From a virus, in IMG/VR virus record IMGVR_UViG_3300023180_000050, positions 2,655 through 66,654 of that record: DNA of 64,000 nt; one strand, 5' to 3'. How positions within the stretch are numbered: the first letter of the stretch is position 1; each line of letters begins with the position of its first letter. Below the pieces are notes generated by a model, which had not been told where the DNA came from, did not search any database, and was given only the letters and a program-made list of their open reading frames with translations. The position numbers were made by a program, and so were the translations under genes. Below are positions 12,204 through 30,278 of this stretch, piece after piece.

Positions 12204-12758
12204 ATGGCTGGTTTACCCCATTATCAGAACTCAATAAACTCGGTAAATAAGTTTGAACCGGTTTTCCTCAATCAATTTGAGGTAAACGTTATACCTCCCG
12301 CAGCAGTTGCTGGTGGTCCGGTTCTTCTTGAGCACGTGATTTCTGTTGATGGATTAGAGGTTGATAAAAACCCAAATTTCGTTGCACAGAAGTACAAGTT
12401 TGCCAAAAGGAATTATGCTGGAGGTAAGCCCGACACAACTACTCTTGACCTTGGATTGAAATTCACTGTCAACCTTGATGATGCTAACTCCATGTATGTT
12501 TTTAAAACACTTAGGCAGTGGACGGATTTAATATACAATCCACTAACCGGTGCACAAGGTATCAAGGCAGATTATACCGGAACAATTGTAGTTTCTGTCT
12601 TTAACAAAAATGGAGAAGTTTTTAGAAGGATTACTTTAAAAGATTGCTTCCCGCTAAAAGCAATCGACCCAATGGAATTAACATACATCGACGGAAGTAC
12701 TCTGTACGAGATCAGCATGGTTTGGGCGGTTGATTACTGGGATGATCTTTTCTTATAA
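12204..12758 (+). CDS. gp19: Tail tube protein (copy 1)
   Basis: Follows the sheath; NQFEV..YAGG..LRQW..YNPLTG..LKDCFP..DYW tube pattern; GATAAATA variant promoter at 12176. Confidence 0.8.
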   Translation: MAGLPHYQNSINSVNKFEPVFLNQFEVNVIPPAAVAGGPVLLEHVISVDGLEVDKNPNFVAQKYKFAKRNYAGGKPDTTTLDLGLKFTVNLDDANSMYVFKTLRQWTDLIYNPLTGAQGIKADYTGTIVVSVFNKNGEVFRRITLKDCFPLKAIDPMELTYIDGSTLYEISMVWAVDYWDDLFL

Positions 12759-12772
12759 AATAAAAAAAGTAG

Positions 12773-13351
12773 ATGGCAGGTTTACCACATTTTAATAATT
12801 CAAAGGCAGCAAGAAATAACTACGAGCCGGTTTTCTTAAACCAGTTTGAAGTCTTGATTACTCCTCCAAATGGTATAAATCTAGCGAACACTACCTTCAA
12901 GGGGGAAAACATCCTTACACAACAGGTAAAGAACATTTCTGCTTTGCAAGTAGATCTACAGCCTGCAGATGCGGTTACACAATACTACAAGTTTGCTGAG
13001 AGAAGGTATGCTGGAGGTGAGCCTTCAACTTCGGATGTTCAGTTTACTATGGATTTTGAAGTAAACCTTGATGACGACAATTCTATGACCCTTTATAAAA
13101 TCTTAAGACAATGGTCAGATCTGATTTACAACCCACTCACTGGGGCTATGGGTCTGAAAAGGGATTATGTTGGTTCTATGGTGGTTTCTATATTTAATAA
13201 ACAGGGTGATGTGTTTAGAAGAATTACTTTGAATAATTGCTTCCTGGTTGAAGCTATCAATCCGATGCCACTATCTTATGATTCTGGAGACGCTCTTTAC
13301 ACCATTTCTACAACTTGGAAGTCTGATTACTGGAACGATCTGTTCTTATAA
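12773..13351 (+). CDS. gp19: Tail tube protein (copy 2, paralogue)
   Basis: Shares MAGLPH, EPVFLNQFEV, LRQW.DLIYNPLTGA.G, VFRRITL and DYW.DLFL with copy 1. Confidence 0.8.
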   Translation: MAGLPHFNNSKAARNNYEPVFLNQFEVLITPPNGINLANTTFKGENILTQQVKNISALQVDLQPADAVTQYYKFAERRYAGGEPSTSDVQFTMDFEVNLDDDNSMTLYKILRQWSDLIYNPLTGAMGLKRDYVGSMVVSIFNKQGDVFRRITLNNCFLVEAINPMPLSYDSGDALYTISTTWKSDYWNDLFL

Positions 13352-20254: not shown

Positions 20255-20929
20255 ATGAGCGCAAACATAGGTGATAGCTTTGAAATATTTGGAGGCGGGT
20301 CCAGTAACGGAGGTACCGGATCTGGTACCCCCTTTGGTTATGGTGATAGTAATCCTGCTTTAACAACAGGGCAGTCCGGTCCGTGGAATACTAAATACAC
20401 ATTAATTGCAAACGATCCTGGATCACTGAAGAGAGTAAACCTTACTTTCTCCAACTATAATGATCCTCATGAAGTTAGAATATTTCAAACCTCGCTAAAC
20501 GTAACATATCAGGCTGAGATAGAGGAGAAATTGGATTTATCTGAGTACTTCCACCCACTCCAGTCCTTTTCAAGCTACCAAAAGCAAACCTTTGTTATAT
20601 CACCAGATGCTTCAATAAATTTGGATCCTGGTGATTTTGACACAACATTGGGTGAAGTAAGCTTATTGATGGCCAGGGCTCATTACAAAGCGGATGCAGT
20701 TGAGGACCAAAGGCTTTTATACTGGCATTACAATTCTGGGTATAGGAATATTATGTCTGATATGATGATGCTTACTGGGCAGGTAAAGCCAGATGCTGCA
20801 TGGAAGGGATGGCAAACATTACCTAATATCGACGAGCAAGTCGGATATACTGGAGCAGCAACAGGCGGATTCGTTTTTTCAAATCCAACTGAATATCCAG
20901 TTAAACTTACAATATTAACTGCAAGCTAA
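20255..20929 (+). CDS. Hypothetical virion protein (paralogue A)
   Basis: C-terminal YWHY..NI.SDMMMLTG..GW..GGFVFSNP..VKLTIL shared with the next gene. Confidence 0.6.
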   Translation: MSANIGDSFEIFGGGSSNGGTGSGTPFGYGDSNPALTTGQSGPWNTKYTLIANDPGSLKRVNLTFSNYNDPHEVRIFQTSLNVTYQAEIEEKLDLSEYFHPLQSFSSYQKQTFVISPDASINLDPGDFDTTLGEVSLLMARAHYKADAVEDQRLLYWHYNSGYRNIMSDMMMLTGQVKPDAAWKGWQTLPNIDEQVGYTGAATGGFVFSNPTEYPVKLTILTAS

Positions 20930-21474
20930 TGGCAACTAGACCTATTATATGTCCACCGCAGCCGATAGACGGATTCCTTTTTAGAAAGGACAAATTTGTT
21001 CTTGAGGAAGACTACAACATCACGAACTTCTTTGATTTCAGTGACCTTCAGGATGAGGTCATTTCATATTCAAGGATGAAAGTAACATTAAAAAAGAACA
21101 AGAGTGTAAAGATTAGCCAGACTGATATAGGGGATGATAATGGCTTTGTTAAATGGGTAGCTGTTAAGGTAAAATACCCAGCACCAAAGAATCCTGTATT
21201 ATATGGGGCTCAAACTCCTATTATACCTGGGGTACCAACACCAACTAACGGAACCCCTCAGGTTAAAAAATACATCTATTGGACATATAGGGGAAATACC
21301 TATAATATCGGGGAGATGATGATCTTGACCGGTGATAAATTGGGATCTACTGATTCTGAAAAAAGCGGCTGGAATCTTAGCGAGGATTTTCTCCCATACG
21401 AAGATGGGGGAATAACCTTCAGCAACCCTCACACAGATATTGACGTAAAGCTTGAAATTATTATAGCTAGATAA
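20929..21474 (+). CDS. Hypothetical virion protein (paralogue B)
   Basis: YWTY..NIGEMMILTG..GW..GGITFSNP..VKLEII; coupled to the previous gene by a TAATG overlap. Confidence 0.6.
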   Translation: MATRPIICPPQPIDGFLFRKDKFVLEEDYNITNFFDFSDLQDEVISYSRMKVTLKKNKSVKISQTDIGDDNGFVKWVAVKVKYPAPKNPVLYGAQTPIIPGVPTPTNGTPQVKKYIYWTYRGNTYNIGEMMILTGDKLGSTDSEKSGWNLSEDFLPYEDGGITFSNPHTDIDVKLEIIIAR

Positions 21475-24896: not shown

Positions 24897-25382
24897 ATGC
24901 CCGATATAAAGAAAATAAAACCCAATGGGGACTATAAGTCTGGCTTATACGTTCCGCAAAACCCGGACAAGTACATTGGTGACGTCCATAACATAATCTG
25001 CAGATCTTCTTGGGAATTCAGGTTTTGTCGTTATTGCGATACTAACGACAAAATACTTAAATGGAGTTCTGAACCAATCTCTATTCCTTATTACAATCCT
25101 TTGGATAAGAAAGAACACCAATATAATGTGGACTTTTATATGCAAGTTCTAAAGGACGATGAGCAAACTCAGGACTGGATAATAGAGGTCAAGCCAGAGA
25201 AGCACTTCAAGAAACCTATCCTTGAAGGAAATTCAACACTCAAGAAACTTAAGTCCTACAACCATAAAATGCAGATTTGGATTACCAACCAAGCCAAGTT
25301 CAAAGCAGCACAAAGATGGGCAGATGCTAGAGGATACAAATTTGGTGTGGTTGATGAGAATTTTTTATTTAAAAGCAAGTGA
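24897..25382 (+). CDS. gp4: Head completion nuclease (gp4, TnsA-like fold)
   Basis: PQNPDKYIGD..CRSSWE..WSSEPISIPY..DF..IEVKP..NQAKFKAA. Confidence 0.88.
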   Translation: MPDIKKIKPNGDYKSGLYVPQNPDKYIGDVHNIICRSSWEFRFCRYCDTNDKILKWSSEPISIPYYNPLDKKEHQYNVDFYMQVLKDDEQTQDWIIEVKPEKHFKKPILEGNSTLKKLKSYNHKMQIWITNQAKFKAAQRWADARGYKFGVVDENFLFKSK

Positions 25383-25984
25383 AACCTTTCGAAGAGCAAA
25401 TTAAGGACCTAAGAAAGGAATCACAGTCGATTTCTAGCATTTCTAAGGAATCGAATGGTTTGTTTAAGAAAAAATATGGACCGAATGGTTCTGGTGGAAG
25501 ACTAGAATTCAATGGAGATTTCATACCAGGTAAATTCTATACCTGCGAATATAAAACGAAAACCAAGATTTCTGATAAAGTTCCCTTTATTGATAGGGAG
25601 CCCGTTTTCATCTTTTTGAAAAAAGAGAAGTTCCAATCTGGATCTATAGCGGTGTCTGTAGATCTTGGTGTCATCCCCCCTGATTATAGGGGTAATATTA
25701 TGGTTAAGTTGTGGAACCAGTATTATAATATATTTAAGGATAATGAGTCCTTGCCATATACTTCCCAAATTCCCATACAAGGGATCAGTAGGGCATTTGA
25801 TGCTTTATTAAACGGTACTGGGTGGAAAACTTCTCTTACCGGATTTAAGCTCGATTTTATGAATAATATAAAGGTTGTGGACTATACTGATCTTGTCAGA
25901 ATCCCATATCTTTCTGATTTTATGATAGAGGGACAATCCATTAATGGGATATATAGTGATTATAGATCGAAATTAAATCTCTAA
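25379..25984 (+). CDS. gp2: DNA end protector-like protein
   Basis: PGKFYTCEY..K..VPFIDREP resembles the gp2 motif; adjacent to gp4 as in T4-like phages. Confidence 0.55.
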   Translation: MKPFEEQIKDLRKESQSISSISKESNGLFKKKYGPNGSGGRLEFNGDFIPGKFYTCEYKTKTKISDKVPFIDREPVFIFLKKEKFQSGSIAVSVDLGVIPPDYRGNIMVKLWNQYYNIFKDNESLPYTSQIPIQGISRAFDALLNGTGWKTSLTGFKLDFMNNIKVVDYTDLVRIPYLSDFMIEGQSINGIYSDYRSKLNL

Positions 25985-26017
25985 GATAAAGTACAAAAGA
26001 CAGATCTTATTTTATAA

Positions 26018-27646
26018 ATGGCCGGATTTAACGAAACACCAGAAGGGAACCCGATATTCCAAAGGATTAGAGAGTCTGTAAAGTCTCTCAGTAATTTTGG
26101 TATGAGGTATGGTGATATGGTCATTAAAAATTCACAGGCCATTGGATCGATAGAAGCTGATTTTATGAAAAAGCAATCTATCGATGATGAGAGCTTGCTT
26201 TATTCCCTCGGTAGACAAGACACGACCACAAGACAATTTATCAGCTACTATGATAAGGATTATGCAGGAAAGAGAGATTATCTTAGGAAGTTTGCTCTGA
26301 ATCCTGAGATAGAGTACATCTTGGATACTGTCTGTGACGAAGCGATAACTTTTGACTCATACAACTTCTTTGCATATCCAGCATTTTTAAATCTTACCGA
26401 TGTAAAGGATAAGATAAAAAACCGTCTGGACGAGAATTATAAGAATTTGTATGACATGTTCGGCTTCGGCGATGATATCAGCGGGTGGCAATACTTTAGA
26501 CAGCTAATGGTCGATGGCTTTCTTGCCTTTGAAATAGTTTATGATGACAAAGGTAAGAAGATTATTGGATTTAAGGAATTAGATGCAACTACTCTAATGC
26601 CATCTGTTGAAAAGCAGCCTGATGGTACTTATTTGAGTGTTTGGTATCAATACCCAAAGGATATCAATAAGAGGAGGATGCTATATGACTCCCAGGTGAT
26701 TTACATATCATTTGCTAAGGGAAACACAGTTTCTAGGATTAGCTATGTCGAAAGACTTATAAGGCCCTACAACATTCTTAGGATAATCGAGTACACTAGG
26801 GTGATATGGTCGGTTATGAACGCATCGTTCAGAATGAAAATGACTGTACCGATTGGATCGAGATCTCCACAGAAGTCTATGCAAACCTTGGGTGAGCTTA
26901 TGAGTATCTATAAGGAAGATATTAGGTTCAATGATGAGAGTGGGGAGTTAACAGTAGATGGCAGACCTAAGATACAGTTTTATAAGAATTATCTAATGCC
27001 TTCTGGTGTTAATGGAACACCAACAATAGAACCTATTAATAATGCTGGTCCAAACTTAAACGATCCCCAGCCTCTTGCTTATTTCTACGATAAGCTAGTT
27101 CAGGAATCTAAAATTCCTTTTTCTAGGTTCCAAGGTCCTGATGGTGGATCTATAGGAAACTATTCGAATGGTGCAGAAGGATTGGATAAGGAGGAAATAA
27201 GGTTTGGTAAGTTTATTAGTAGGCTTAGATCTATCTTCCAGGATCTTTTGGTTAAGCCACTTTGGATTCAAATGTGTAAGGATTTTCCGGAGTTGGAGAA
27301 GGATTACTTATTTAAGAGTCAACTGGGGTTGGAATATGTTTCTGATAATCCATTCAGGGTTAATCAAGAGATAGAAACCATGCTTAAAAAGAAAGAGCAA
27401 ATTGATGGTATGTATGCTCTTACAGATGATAGCGGTGAGCCTTTCTTTTCATTGGCTTATCTAATTGAGTCTCATTTGGGAATGACTGACGATGATATAA
27501 AGGCAAATAAGGAAGCTATCAAGAAAAGGAAAGAGGAGGAAAAAAAGAAAGCTGACGAAGAGGCTAAATCTTCGGAGGAAGAACCCGCAGAGGAAGCTCC
27601 AGAAGAATCTCCGGAGGAAACCCCGGAAGAACCCCCACAAGAATAA
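26018..27646 (+). CDS. gp20: Portal protein (copy 1)
   Basis: PEIEYILDTVCDEAI, FRQLMVDG, SYVERLIRPYNILRIIE, YFYDKL..SKIPFSRF, EEIRFGKFISRLRSIF; GATATATA at 25948. Confidence 0.88.
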   Translation: MAGFNETPEGNPIFQRIRESVKSLSNFGMRYGDMVIKNSQAIGSIEADFMKKQSIDDESLLYSLGRQDTTTRQFISYYDKDYAGKRDYLRKFALNPEIEYILDTVCDEAITFDSYNFFAYPAFLNLTDVKDKIKNRLDENYKNLYDMFGFGDDISGWQYFRQLMVDGFLAFEIVYDDKGKKIIGFKELDATTLMPSVEKQPDGTYLSVWYQYPKDINKRRMLYDSQVIYISFAKGNTVSRISYVERLIRPYNILRIIEYTRVIWSVMNASFRMKMTVPIGSRSPQKSMQTLGELMSIYKEDIRFNDESGELTVDGRPKIQFYKNYLMPSGVNGTPTIEPINNAGPNLNDPQPLAYFYDKLVQESKIPFSRFQGPDGGSIGNYSNGAEGLDKEEIRFGKFISRLRSIFQDLLVKPLWIQMCKDFPELEKDYLFKSQLGLEYVSDNPFRVNQEIETMLKKKEQIDGMYALTDDSGEPFFSLAYLIESHLGMTDDDIKANKEAIKKRKEEEKKKADEEAKSSEEEPAEEAPEESPEETPEEPPQE

Positions 27647-27655
27647 TAATATAGA

Positions 27656-29260
27656 ATGGCAGGTTTTTTAGATTATGTAGCAGAAAGATCCTTCTTGGGT
27701 AACCTGTATAAGAATTTATCCAAGGTTGGAAGGTTTGGAATGGAATACGAAGATATGGTAATTCGTAATTCCCAAGCTGTTGGTGCTACTGAATCTAACT
27801 TTTTCAACGAACAGGGAAGTGGATTTACTGAAAACAACGCATTTTATTGGACCCTTGGATATCAGGATACGAAGGTTAGAAAATATATTGCCTACTTCGA
27901 CAAGGACTACATGGGTAAAAGAGACTTCCTTAGGAAATTCTCTTTGAATGGCGAAATTGATTTTATCCTGGATACACTTACTGATGATGCTATCAATTAC
28001 GATGACAAAAATTTCTTTAGTTATCCGTCTTTAGCTAACATTGATCTAAAGCCTGATGTGCTTGATAAGGTAAACGAGACATATCAGAATTTGTATATGC
28101 TGTTTGGCTTTCAGCAAAGCATATTAGCTTGGCAATATTTTAAGCAGTTTTTGATTGATGGGTTTTTGGCTTTTGAGATTGTTTATTCTACTGATGGCAA
28201 GAAAATAGTTGGCTTTAAAGAATTAGATCCAACCTCCCTTCAACCCGCTACAGAACAGCAGCCAAATGGTGAATTCCAACAGATTTGGATACAATACCCA
28301 GAGGATAATAAAATGACAAGGAAGCTCAGAAGTGAGCAGATCATTTATCTTTCGTATGCTAAAGGAAATACAATTTCTAGGGTAAGCTATGTGGAGAGAC
28401 TTATAAGGTCTTATAACATTCTAAGAATCATGGAAAACACCAGGGTTATTTGGAATGTGATGAATGCTTCTTATAGACTTAAGTTTGTAATCCCTGTTGG
28501 TTCACAGTCTCAGCAAAAAGCAATGCAAACCCTTGGACAGCTAATGTCTATCTATAAAGAGGAAATGGAAATTAATGATTCCTCGGGTGAACTAACAGTA
28601 AACGGTAGACCTAAGGTTCAGTTTTATAAGAATTATCTTTTCCCTGAGAAAGATGGACAATCCCCACAGATTGAAACCCTTGATCCCAATGGACCAGACT
28701 TCAATGTTATGGATAATGTTATTTACTTCTATAACAAGCTTAAACTGGATTCGAAAATACCTTATGCAAGGTTTGCTTTCCGAAATGGTACCCCGGCTAA
28801 CTATCAAATAAGTATAGATCAGCTAGAAAGGGATGAAATTAGGTTTGAGAAATTCTTAACAAGACTAAGATCGATCTTCCAAGAAATATTGGTCAAACCT
28901 CTTTACATACAAATGTGTTTGGACTTCCCAGAATTAGCTAAGGATAGATCATTCAAAGCAAATCTGGGCCTAAGTTATGTAAGAGAAAACCTTTTCGAGG
29001 AGTTTATTCAATTGCAAAATTATACAAAACGCACCCAGTTTATAAATGACCTTGGTGAAATGAAGCAAAAGATTGGCGAGGAAGAGGAATCTTATTTTGA
29101 CAAAGAATTCCTGATTAAAAGGTATCTCGGTTTAACTATGGACGAATATAAGAAGAACGAGAAATATAAGGAAGCTGAAGCTAAGCTTGCTGAGGAAAAG
29201 GCTAAGGAAGCCGGATCTGAGGGCGGAGAGGAAGGCGGAGGCGAGTCATTCACCCTATAA
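27656..29260 (+). CDS. gp20: Portal protein (copy 2, paralogue)
   Basis: EIDFILDTLTDDAI, FKQFLIDG, SYVERLIRSYNILRIME, YFYNKL..SKIPYARF, RDEIRFEKFLTRLRSIF. Confidence 0.88.
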   Translation: MAGFLDYVAERSFLGNLYKNLSKVGRFGMEYEDMVIRNSQAVGATESNFFNEQGSGFTENNAFYWTLGYQDTKVRKYIAYFDKDYMGKRDFLRKFSLNGEIDFILDTLTDDAINYDDKNFFSYPSLANIDLKPDVLDKVNETYQNLYMLFGFQQSILAWQYFKQFLIDGFLAFEIVYSTDGKKIVGFKELDPTSLQPATEQQPNGEFQQIWIQYPEDNKMTRKLRSEQIIYLSYAKGNTISRVSYVERLIRSYNILRIMENTRVIWNVMNASYRLKFVIPVGSQSQQKAMQTLGQLMSIYKEEMEINDSSGELTVNGRPKVQFYKNYLFPEKDGQSPQIETLDPNGPDFNVMDNVIYFYNKLKLDSKIPYARFAFRNGTPANYQISIDQLERDEIRFEKFLTRLRSIFQEILVKPLYIQMCLDFPELAKDRSFKANLGLSYVRENLFEEFIQLQNYTKRTQFINDLGEMKQKIGEEEESYFDKEFLIKRYLGLTMDEYKKNEKYKEAEAKLAEEKAKEAGSEGGEEGGGESFTL

Positions 29261-29270
29261 TTTTATATAA

Positions 29271-30278
29271 ATGGATCTAAAGGATCTCCTGTCTTCAAAG
29301 AAAATTCTGGTAGTTGGTGATGTTATATTAGACCATTACATCTATGGTAAGGTTTATCGGGTTTCTCCGGAAGCACCAGTACCTGTAGTACTAAAATCAA
29401 ATTCAGCATATTGTTTAGGTGGATCAGCAAATGTCGCCCAAAATGTTTCTTCTTTCGGGTCTGAATGCTGGCTTCTTGGTGTTTATGGCAGTGACCAGGG
29501 ATCTGTAGAGATTGACAATCTTCTAGGGGAGAAGAACATACACTCACTTATGATAACTGATAGCTCTAGACCAACTGTAGAAAAAACCAGAGTTATTGGG
29601 AATAGCCACCAGATTGTTAGAATAGATTCTGAGACAAGTGATCCATTGGCATCTGATATCCAGGAGGAGGTATTGGAATCCTTTAAAAACATTATACACC
29701 AGATGGATGGTGTTATTATACAAGACTACGGAAAGGGAATGCTTAGTGATGAGCTTATAAGTAAGATAACTGATATCTGCACCGATCTGGAAATCCCTAC
29801 TCTGACTGATCCTAAGGATAGAGATTTTTCCAAATATATTGGATCTACCTGGATAAAACCAAATCTTAGTGAGTTTAAGTCATCCCTTGATATTCCACAG
29901 CCTGAAGCAATTGACTTAAAACGTACCACGAAACTTATGGATTCTTTGATGGACTCTTTTGGTTTTAGAGGAGTTTTGCTTACCCTTTCCGAAGATGGTA
30001 TGATGTTAAAGACGAATTCAGATTTCGAACAGGTCGATGGAATCCAAATAGAGGTAACTGATGTTTCTGGAGCGGGTGATACAGTTAGTGCTGTTTTCAT
30101 GCTTCTGCTAACAAATAACGTCTCTTATCTCGATTGCTTGAGAATATCAAATCTTGCTGGTTCCCTGGTTTGCCAAGTATCCGGAGCAGTACCTGTAGAT
30201 TCCAATAGCCTTTATATGACACTTCTTAAAAATTCTTGGGTTATCACAAGCCGTTCTGGAGAGCCTATTTTGATTTAG
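29271..30278 (+). CDS. rfaE: D-glycero-beta-D-manno-heptose-7-phosphate kinase (RfaE/HldE kinase domain, PfkB family)
   Basis: LVVGDVILDHY..RVSPEAPVPV..GGSANVA..QDYGKG..DPK..KPN..DVSGAGDTV. Confidence 0.9.
   Translation: MDLKDLLSSKKILVVGDVILDHYIYGKVYRVSPEAPVPVVLKSNSAYCLGGSANVAQNVSSFGSECWLLGVYGSDQGSVEIDNLLGEKNIHSLMITDSSRPTVEKTRVIGNSHQIVRIDSETSDPLASDIQEEVLESFKNIIHQMDGVIIQDYGKGMLSDELISKITDICTDLEIPTLTDPKDRDFSKYIGSTWIKPNLSEFKSSLDIPQPEAIDLKRTTKLMDSLMDSFGFRGVLLTLSEDGMMLKTNSDFEQVDGIQIEVTDVSGAGDTVSAVFMLLLTNNVSYLDCLRISNLAGSLVCQVSGAVPVDSNSLYMTLLKNSWVITSRSGEPILI

Follow-up and report, generated by a model that had tools for sequence, protein, structure and literature searches.

Two conserved tandem portal genes in an uncultured aquatic giant phage and its relatives

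An uncultured aquatic giant phage keeps two old, equally constrained copies of the normally single portal gene side by side, as does every sampled member of its large clade with enough sequence at the locus. This suggests, but does not prove, that its DNA-entry ring is built from two kinds of subunit. We analysed a 64,000-nt stretch (hereafter referred to as the window) of the IMG/VR record IMGVR_UViG_3300023180_000050 (positions 2,655 to 66,654). A preliminary description had reported two intact, collinear gp20-like genes in tandem, clearly diverged and with different acidic tails, and this observation was confirmed. Its interpretation, that the pair reflects an alternating hetero-dodecamer, two specialised vertices or two particle types, and hence an undescribed virion architecture, was only partly supported.

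Two full-length portal genes in tandem

A BLASTP comparison of the two proteins (copy 1 and copy 2, Table 1) gave 265/525 identities (50%), collinear from residue 1 to about residue 519, and shared motifs such as SYVERLIR, listed in the preliminary description, are present in the translations. The C-terminal tails are both acidic but differ in sequence. Both proteins matched the Pfam family PF07230 (Portal_T4) end to end and above the curated cut-off of 22.9 bits (copy 1: 201.2 bits, E 3e-59, profile positions 7–432 of 433; copy 2: 205.9 bits, E 1e-60, positions 9–432), and both were assigned to PHROG 213 (portal). The AF2 models (pLDDT 78.7 for copy 1 and 76.0 for copy 2) showed the same order of helices and strands, with the lowest confidence in the clip and tunnel-loop stretches (pLDDT 50–70). 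The top Foldseek hits for both were T4 gp20 chains (9MKB, 9LU7, 6UZC and 3JA7; best E value 1.5e-18 for copy 1 and 8e-20 for copy 2). The two genes lie in a T4-like late head and packaging module, with neck, large terminase, sheath, two tubes, gp55-like sigma, gp4-like and gp2-like genes upstream on the same strand, and prohead protease and major capsid protein genes downstream.

Table 1. Features of the portal locus and of the tube genes in the window
Positions	Strand	Feature
12204–12758		Tube gene, 55% identical to the tube gene at 12773–13351
12773–13351		Tube gene, 55% identical to the tube gene at 12204–12758
25948–25955	+	GATATATA motif, a late-promoter-like element about 62 nt upstream of the copy-1 start, inside the 3' end of the preceding gene
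26018–27646	+	Portal paralog copy 1 (542 aa), gp20 type; more conserved clip, net negative tunnel-loop stretch, acidic, proline-rich C-terminal tail
27647–27655	+	9-nt spacer between the copy-1 double stop (TAATAA, whose last base is 27646) and the copy-2 ATG (TAATAA TATAGA ATG)
27656–29260	+	Portal paralog copy 2 (534 aa), gp20 type; more conserved channel loop and stem helix, net positive tunnel-loop stretch, Gly/Glu-rich C-terminal tail

No + strand terminator was found between the two portal genes, and a sigma-70 promoter scan yielded no more sites than shuffled sequences (18 found against 21.5 expected). The promoter reading of the upstream motif was not examined further. Contigs from three RNA libraries covered parts of both genes at 99% identity or more, and one of them (27625–27892) marginally spans the spacer. 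However, some stretches had no cover (for example 28240–28680 in all three libraries), such contigs do not prove transcription and give neither an expression level nor a ratio, and DNA carry-over cannot be excluded; this is weak evidence on the possibility, raised beforehand as a ground for rejection, that one copy is unexpressed. The preliminary description had also pointed to duplicated tubes and to a 20255/20929 gene pair. The tube duplication is real, but the latter pair shows only a weak local similarity (36% identity over 75 residues, E 5e-7).

Age and conservation of the duplication

An assembly chimera had been named in advance as a finding that would overturn the observation, but the tandem is not an assembly chimera. 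The copy1–copy2 tandem was present in 137 of 142, 80 of 80 and 54 of 93 related loci, in many independent assemblies, at identities to the window's copies from 100% down to about 50–58% in a second clade. A 3,953-nt DNA contig fully spans the junction, although that run may be the source sample. Relatives were sought in viral contigs, and the metagenome and genome contig collections were not scanned. The 5 + 1 single-copy loci of the A/B types were all cut by contig ends, whereas 38 loci of outgroup types carry a single portal, 23 of them with at least 1.8 kb of room on both sides. No locus of the clade with room had only one copy, so the loss of one copy in close relatives, also proposed as a refuting observation, was not seen. 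One relative (locus L052) has a frameshifted copy 2, which could be a sequencing error or a sign that copy 2 is dispensable. Two PF07230 matches were found in the window's record and in three larger relatives (230, 219 and 128 kb), against one in the related 462-kb phage LR756500. Relatives of the sequence P0002 in viral contigs yielded only two truncated loci (L223 and L224), which do not show copy number. Contigs of the two-copy clade reach 430 kb and come from samples labelled salt marsh, freshwater and marine; their host was not predicted.

The persistence of the copies as separate clades under purifying selection had been set out as a check, and both conditions held. The phylogenies showed one old duplication, with copy-1 and copy-2 sequences forming two mirrored clades (SH-aLRT 98–100) and a supported joint clade (99, 90 and 99). 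The two stem branches after the duplication were both 0.17. In the 51 and 48 unique intact pairs of the first and second clades of relatives, median dN/dS (copy 1/copy 2) was 0.023/0.014 and 0.036/0.045, and the dN ratio of copy 1 to copy 2 was 0.96 and 0.92, respectively. The spacer ranged from −1 to 23 nt in the 51 pairs and from 2 to 11 nt in the 48 pairs. A partition of ancestral states gave only seven informative sites (4 against 3), too few to indicate which copy is derived.

The copies share stem and clip but differ consistently. Identity between them was 83% in the stem helix, 63% in the clip and 71% in the C-terminal wing. Across 100 genome pairs, 120 columns were invariant in both copies and only 8 sites were fixed differently, whereas 33 positions were conserved only in copy 1 and 27 only in copy 2. 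The net charge of the tunnel-loop stretch averaged −1.5 in copy 1 and +1.4 in copy 2, with copy 1 lower in 100 of 100 pairs, and the clip tip was more positive in copy 1 in 100 of 100 pairs. Copy 1 had the more constrained clip (entropy 0.46 against 0.67, p 0.007) and copy 2 the more constrained channel loop plus stem a7 (0.58, against 0.96 in copy 1, p 0.003). However, with eight domains tested, the clip value just misses a Bonferroni threshold of 0.006, and the domain borders were carried over from T4 gp20 (PMC4493910) through an alignment at about 18% identity, so terms such as tunnel loop and clip tip are approximate. The tail-tube gene, encoding another ring-forming conduit protein, is duplicated in the same genomes and single in the single-portal relatives, which gives partial support to the proposal of an undescribed virion architecture.

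Possible composition of the portal ring

We consider it shown by these data that the two genes arose from a single old tandem duplication of a T4 gp20-type portal gene at the base of this clade, and that both copies have since been kept intact, adjacent, in the same order and under equally strong purifying selection. How the products assemble is, in contrast, an inference, to which we assign a probability of about 0.5. In this view, both proteins would be made together from one late transcript, with close or coupled translation, and would co-assemble into one dodecameric ring at the single portal vertex, most simply alternating 6+6. The shared stem and clip would build one common channel and one docking surface for terminase and neck, and the diverged parts (tunnel loop of opposite charge, crown, N-terminus and tails) would give the ring a six-fold pattern on its DNA-facing and capsid-interior side. 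The asymmetry of constraint suggests a division of labour, with copy 1 specialised in outward docking through the clip and copy 2 in the channel constriction.

The small number of sites fixed differently indicates that little interface incompatibility has evolved, and co-expressed paralogs of a homo-oligomer tend to cross-assemble unless their interfaces diverge. The short spacers, the lack of a terminator-like site between the genes and the single promoter-like motif upstream are consistent with joint expression. However, no result shows that the two proteins touch, and neither a dodecameric ring at one vertex nor co-assembly was measured here, as there were no virions and no oligomer prediction. 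The evidence for co-assembly is only indirect (inferred co-transcription, symmetric constraint, and shared stem and clip), and the near-identical interfaces would equally allow random mixing or two separate homo-rings. Complex prediction of copy 1 (residues 25–505) with copy 2 (residues 25–510), each with its alignment, gave scores of 0.02 and 0.01 against a mark of 0.32; the controls were not run, and we count this neither for nor against binding. A search for fused copy1–copy2 proteins of 950–2710 aa found none among 7,470 candidates, which is weak evidence, and a 1,059-aa sequence (P0148) that looked like a possible double portal is a single portal interrupted by an intein. No heteromeric portal is known in any tailed phage and our literature searches, which did not extend to supplementary gene tables, found no paper describing such a duplication, so the prior is low. 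A paper on the "moraphage" lineage of aquatic giant phages lists the portal family 25 times for 25 genomes and mentions no duplication (PMC12619734); the relationship of that lineage to the present one was not established. The three mechanisms of the preliminary description were not told apart by these data.

A broader possibility, which we regard as unlikely although it is not excluded, is that the whole DNA conduit of these phages has halved its symmetry by gene duplication, with a 6+6 portal and a tail tube built from two paralogs, for example as 3+3 rings or two tube segments. Alternating negative and positive tunnel loops would then form a new kind of DNA valve, and a true six-fold portal would remove the usual 12-to-6 mismatch at the neck and might lower recognition by host defences that read 12-fold portal rings.

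The best surviving alternative, which we consider doubtful, is that each paralog forms its own homo-dodecamer, with one ring nucleating the prohead and packaging DNA while the other sits at a second special site, or with rings serving different particle types, capsid sizes or times in infection. Each copy keeps a complete predicted portal fold and its own set of conserved positions, and the consistent charge differences could equally mark two different rings. However, both copies keep the clip and stem, the parts that dock terminase and neck and form the channel, at 63–83% identity, whereas a ring with a different job would be expected to drift there, and rates and post-duplication branch lengths are symmetric. 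If the genes are co-transcribed, as their spacing suggests, both proteins would be made in one place at one time, and with so few sites fixed differently it is unclear what would keep them apart. Furthermore, no tailed phage is known to have two portal vertices.

It is less likely that only one copy is the virion portal, the other being an assembly chaperone or initiator, a regulator of terminase, or a decoy that blunts host defences sensing portal proteins or rings. Such defences exist: RAZR assembles around 12-fold portal rings, and escape mutations map to portal genes (PMC13017515). Avs4 senses portals. The less conserved clip of copy 2 and the frameshift in L052 would also fit. However, an accessory copy would normally evolve faster or lose parts, whereas both copies are full length in the 99 unique pairs with a rate ratio near 1, neither is clearly the ancestral one, and the more conserved channel loop of copy 2 is a DNA-conduit feature with no obvious use in a decoy. 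An artefact or neutral redundancy, as an assembly chimera of two strains or a recent duplicate on its way to loss, for which the only argument is that the window comes from a metagenomic contig estimated at 22% complete, is in our judgement already excluded by the recurrence of the junction, the divergence and deep separate clades of the copies and the strong purifying selection.

The portal is taken to be a homo-dodecamer from one gene in all tailed phages and herpesviruses, and models of capsid nucleation, packaging-motor docking and DNA gating rest on twelve identical subunits. A large, widespread clade that has kept two portal genes would be the first natural exception. If the ring is mixed, it becomes a natural experiment on which portal functions need twelve-fold identity, how symmetry mismatches at the vertex and neck are handled, and how duplicated homomers become locked-in heteromers. 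The paired tube duplication hints that the effect extends along the conduit.

Comparison with known portals and ring proteins

The closest characterised system is the T4 portal protein gp20 (PF07230; PDB 3JA7, 6UZC, 9MKB, 9LU6/9LU7), with which both copies share the family profile, the predicted fold (E 1e-18 to 1e-20, TM about 0.55–0.70 by target) and the type of late module. However, sequence identity to T4 gp20 is only about 18%, and T4 and its characterised relatives encode one portal gene that forms a homo-dodecamer (PMC4493910), whereas here two paralogs are kept throughout a clade. The closest matches in the GenBank phage collection were portals of related huge phages, LR756500 (44% identity), the other LR records (34–37%) and Lak phages (34–37%), with the same family and gene neighbourhood type. 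LR756500 has one portal and one tube gene, and its portal, identical to the representative sequence P0005, lies outside the two-copy clade. LR756501 (735 kb) has one full portal plus a 58-residue fragment, and one tube gene.

Other viral ring or capsomer proteins have become two-paralog or pseudo-symmetric assemblies, although none of these cases concerns the portal. The T5 tube protein pb6 is a pseudo-hexameric trimer in which the two halves are fused, whereas the portal genes described here stay separate. Together with the hetero-hexameric capsid proteins of some archaeal viruses and of phage P23-77, and with T4 gp23/gp24, it provides a precedent for a duplicated structural protein replacing a homomeric ring position, which lowers true symmetry while keeping the shape (PMC6441041; 10.1101/2022.09.20.507954).

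Two gp20-type portal genes in a T4-like late module

The window is bases 2655-66654 of a 66,654-bp linear IMG/VR viral contig rated as 22% complete by CheckV. The two portal ORFs, encoding proteins of 542 aa (copy 1) and 534 aa (copy 2), are both uninterrupted, and the proteins are 50% identical over 525 aligned residues and collinear from the shared MAGF start to about residue 519. Each matched Pfam PF07230 (Portal_T4) over essentially the whole profile (E 3e-59 and 1e-60 for copies 1 and 2, respectively) and PHROG 213 portal. AlphaFold2 models built from 78- and 77-row alignments had mean pLDDT values of 78.7 and 76.0 and showed the same order of helices and strands, and for both models the best Foldseek hits in the PDB were T4 gp20 chains (9MKB, 9LU7, 6UZC, 3JA7; E 1e-18 to 1e-20), followed at a distance by other phage portals. 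The observation made in the preliminary description, that two full-length portal genes lie in tandem, is confirmed.

The genes are located in a T4-like late module on one strand, with neck, packaging, tail and head genes upstream of them and the prohead protease and major capsid protein genes downstream. Copy 1 ends in TAATAA and copy 2 starts six bases later, and no + strand terminator-like site was found between them. The sugar-kinase-like gene starts 10 nt after copy 2, again with no terminator-like site in between, and it probably rides on the same late transcript. The TnsA-like endonuclease N-terminal domain of the gp4-like protein (PF08722, E 7e-18) is in line with the gp4 nuclease cited in PMC7824862. 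The two tube genes are 55% identical and both start with MAGLPH. The two proteins encoded at 20255 and 20929, which had been put forward as a pair, share only a C-terminal stretch of 75 residues at 36% identity (E 5e-7), and neither has a Pfam or PHROG match. The major capsid gene is single apart from short fragments.

Coordinates of the features in the window and in the sequences compared with it
Sequence	Position	Strand	Feature
Window	3626		Weak neck-protein match
Window	6958		Large terminase
Window	8858		Sheath
Window	12204-12758		Tube paralog
Window	12773-13351		Tube paralog
Window	20255-20929		Protein without Pfam or PHROG match
Window	20929-21474		Protein without Pfam or PHROG match
Window	24535		gp55-like late sigma
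Window	24897-25382		gp4-like head-completion protein (PHROG 218) with a TnsA-like nuclease domain
Window	25379		gp2-like DNA end protector
Window	25948		GATATATA motif, late-promoter-like, upstream of copy 1
Window	26018-27646	+	Portal copy 1
Window	27656-29260	+	Portal copy 2
Window	29271-30278		Sugar-kinase-like gene
Window	30332		DNA ligase
Window	42589		Prohead protease
Window	44619		Major capsid protein
Window	25300-28447		Stretch spanned by a DNA contig of 3,953 nt
Window	27625-27892		Stretch matched by an RNA-library contig crossing the junction
L052 (viral-contig locus)	7650-9250		Copy-2 ortholog with a frameshift
LR756501	72263-73483		Full portal gene
LR756501	15166-15351	-	58-residue portal fragment

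Conservation, phylogeny and selection

It had been proposed in advance that an assembly chimera, or the absence of one copy from close relatives, would overturn the observation, and that both copies should otherwise persist in related genomes as separate clades under purifying selection. Scans of the viral-contig collection with copies 1 and 2 returned 207 and 141 related stretches, respectively, and the best 80 of each were retained. Of the resulting 142 loci, which include two loci from the window's own record and many overlapping cuts of the same contigs, 137 show a copy-1 ortholog directly followed by a copy-2 ortholog. The five loci with one copy (L015, L058, L092, L093 and L140) are all cut by a contig end at the place where the other copy would be. 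After the removal of identical sequences, 51 distinct intact pairs remained, with spacers of -1 to 23 nt. A search of a library of representative proteins identified P0001 as the closest protein outside these. Its viral-contig relatives (184 stretches, of which 80 were retained) form a second clade, in which 80 of 80 loci again carry the tandem, with 48 distinct intact pairs and spacers of 2-11 nt.

Two further scans with outgroup representatives brought in 93 loci. Of these, 54 are further tandem bearers, with copy 1 64-78% and copy 2 65-76% identical to the window's copies, some of them on contigs of 343-430 kb; 38 carry a single portal of outgroup type, at most 50% identical to either copy, 23 of them with at least 1.8 kb of room on both sides; and one is a copy-1-type locus cut 163 nt after the gene. 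We therefore saw no genome with room that has only one of the two copies. Tandem-portal phages were found on contigs (L276, L256, L259, L258 and L293; 430, 373, 373, 344 and 349 kb, respectively) far larger than the roughly 270-300 kb implied by CheckV for the window's record and its nearest relatives, so genome size in this clade seems to span at least 270-430 kb. The only broken portal copy seen among the loci examined was that of L052, in which copy 2 has a frameshift after about residue 208; the near-identical sister locus L051 is intact, and this could be a sequencing error or a real lesion. The junction between the two genes is also spanned by a DNA contig of 3,953 nt from one run, but that run may be the source sample.

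Expression of both copies had likewise been named as a requirement. Contigs from three RNA libraries, two labelled salt marsh and one freshwater, matched parts of both genes at 99% or more, and one contig crosses the junction with 31 bases before the copy-2 start. Such libraries can hold DNA and their contigs give no expression level, so we count this only as compatible with expression of both genes.

Three maximum-likelihood trees (IQ-TREE quick search, LG+G4, SH-aLRT support) gave one duplication with two mirrored clades. With 130 rows, the copy-1 and copy-2 sequences each formed a clade (support of 100), and together with P0001 they formed a clade with a support of 99. With 96 rows covering both deep clades, all 32 copy-1 rows plus P0001 formed one clade (99) and all 32 copy-2 rows formed another (98); the internal branching orders match, both stem branches measure 0.17, and the joint clade had a support of 90. 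With 58 rows, the joint clade (99) held no sequence other than P0001. Among the more distant representatives, P0148 (1,059 aa) is a gp20-type portal interrupted by an intein (PF14890), with weak sub-threshold Pfam matches to an HNH endonuclease and a winged-helix domain between portal residues 348 and about 800.

Selection was assessed by Nei-Gojobori estimates on pairs with synonymous divergence between 0.05 and 1.5, the pairs outside that range being mostly saturated. Across genome pairs, the non-synonymous distance of copy 1 relative to copy 2 had medians of 0.96 and 0.92 in clades 1 and 2, respectively. Neither copy is relaxed.

Nei-Gojobori estimates for the two portal copies
Clade	Copy	Median dN/dS	Pairs used
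1	1	0.023	41 of 1,275
1	2	0.014	38 of 1,275
2	1	0.036	110 of 1,128
2	2	0.045	97 of 1,128

Divergence between the copies

The domain borders of T4 gp20 (PMC4493910) were carried onto copy 1 through a HMMER alignment, and this mapping is approximate. Across 100 genome pairs, 120 columns are invariant in both copies and only 8 are fixed differently, whereas a further 33 are conserved only in copy 1 and 27 only in copy 2.

Identity between the window's two portal copies by domain
Domain	Identity
Stem helix	83%
C-terminal wing helices	71%
Clip	63%
N-terminal wing	55%
Channel loop plus second stem helix	41%
N-terminus	34%
Tunnel loop	28%
Crown	24%
Tails	10%

Column entropy is lower in copy 1 for the clip (0.46 against 0.67, Wilcoxon p 0.007) and lower in copy 2 for the channel loop plus stem helix (0.58 against 0.96, p 0.003). 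The N-terminus is marginal (0.94 against 1.15, p 0.046), and the other five domains show no difference. The tunnel-loop stretch has a mean net charge of -1.5 in copy 1 (range -3 to 0) and +1.4 in copy 2 (range +1 to +2), copy 1 being the lower in 100 of 100 pairs, and the clip tip is one charge more positive in copy 1, also in 100 of 100 pairs. Single-copy outgroup portals are mostly zero or negative in the tunnel-loop stretch (21 of 25), so the positive loop of copy 2 looks derived.

Interpretation and comparison with related phages

We regard it as settled that this is a real, old and retained pair of portal genes, whereas what follows on mechanism is inferred. We favour one mixed ring, with a probability of about 0.5, because the genes would be made together; the stem and clip, which form the shared channel and the docking surface, are the most alike; almost no sites are fixed differently, so nothing obvious would keep the subunits apart; and constraint is symmetric, as expected for two indispensable subunits. 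The opposite-charge loops and the split of constraint between clip and channel loop fit a division of labour within one ring. None of this is direct evidence, and the interpretation in the preliminary description, which proposed an alternating hetero-dodecamer, two specialised vertices or two particle types, is supported only in part. Two separate homo-rings are possible but less likely; they fit the complete folds and the copy-specific conserved sites, but fit less well with the conserved clip in both copies. A non-structural or decoy copy, which draws on the existence of portal-sensing defences such as RAZR (PMC13017515), is unlikely, since it fits poorly with the equal and strong constraint. 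An artefact is, in our judgement, excluded.

Our full-text literature searches, which did not extend to supplementary files and covered few subscription journals, found no paper describing two portal paralogs, or a heteromeric portal, in a tailed phage, and papers retrieved for "two portal proteins" compare portals of different phages. A comparative study of jumbo phages treats the gp20 ortholog as one gene per phage group (PMC7824862). The present analysis adds the limits of the two-copy clade, as set by single-portal sister lineages, the domain-level asymmetry of constraint, the co-duplication of the tube and the RNA-library cover.

Whole-record searches found two PF07230 matches in relatives of 230 kb (85% complete), 219 kb (79%) and 128 kb, but one in the 462-kb phage LR756500, and one plus a 58-residue fragment in the 735-kb LR756501. 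This fragment, which may be a remnant or a mini-gene, matches the C-terminal end of the portal profile (22.4 bits) and lies far from the full portal gene of that phage. Both tandem-portal relatives searched for tube genes (230 and 219 kb) have two, whereas LR756500 and LR756501 have one; the tube duplication therefore goes with the portal duplication. The portal of LR756500 is identical to the representative protein P0005 and falls outside the joint clade in the 58-row tree. The duplication is thus a shared derived trait of one lineage within the huge-phage group that also includes the Lak phages.
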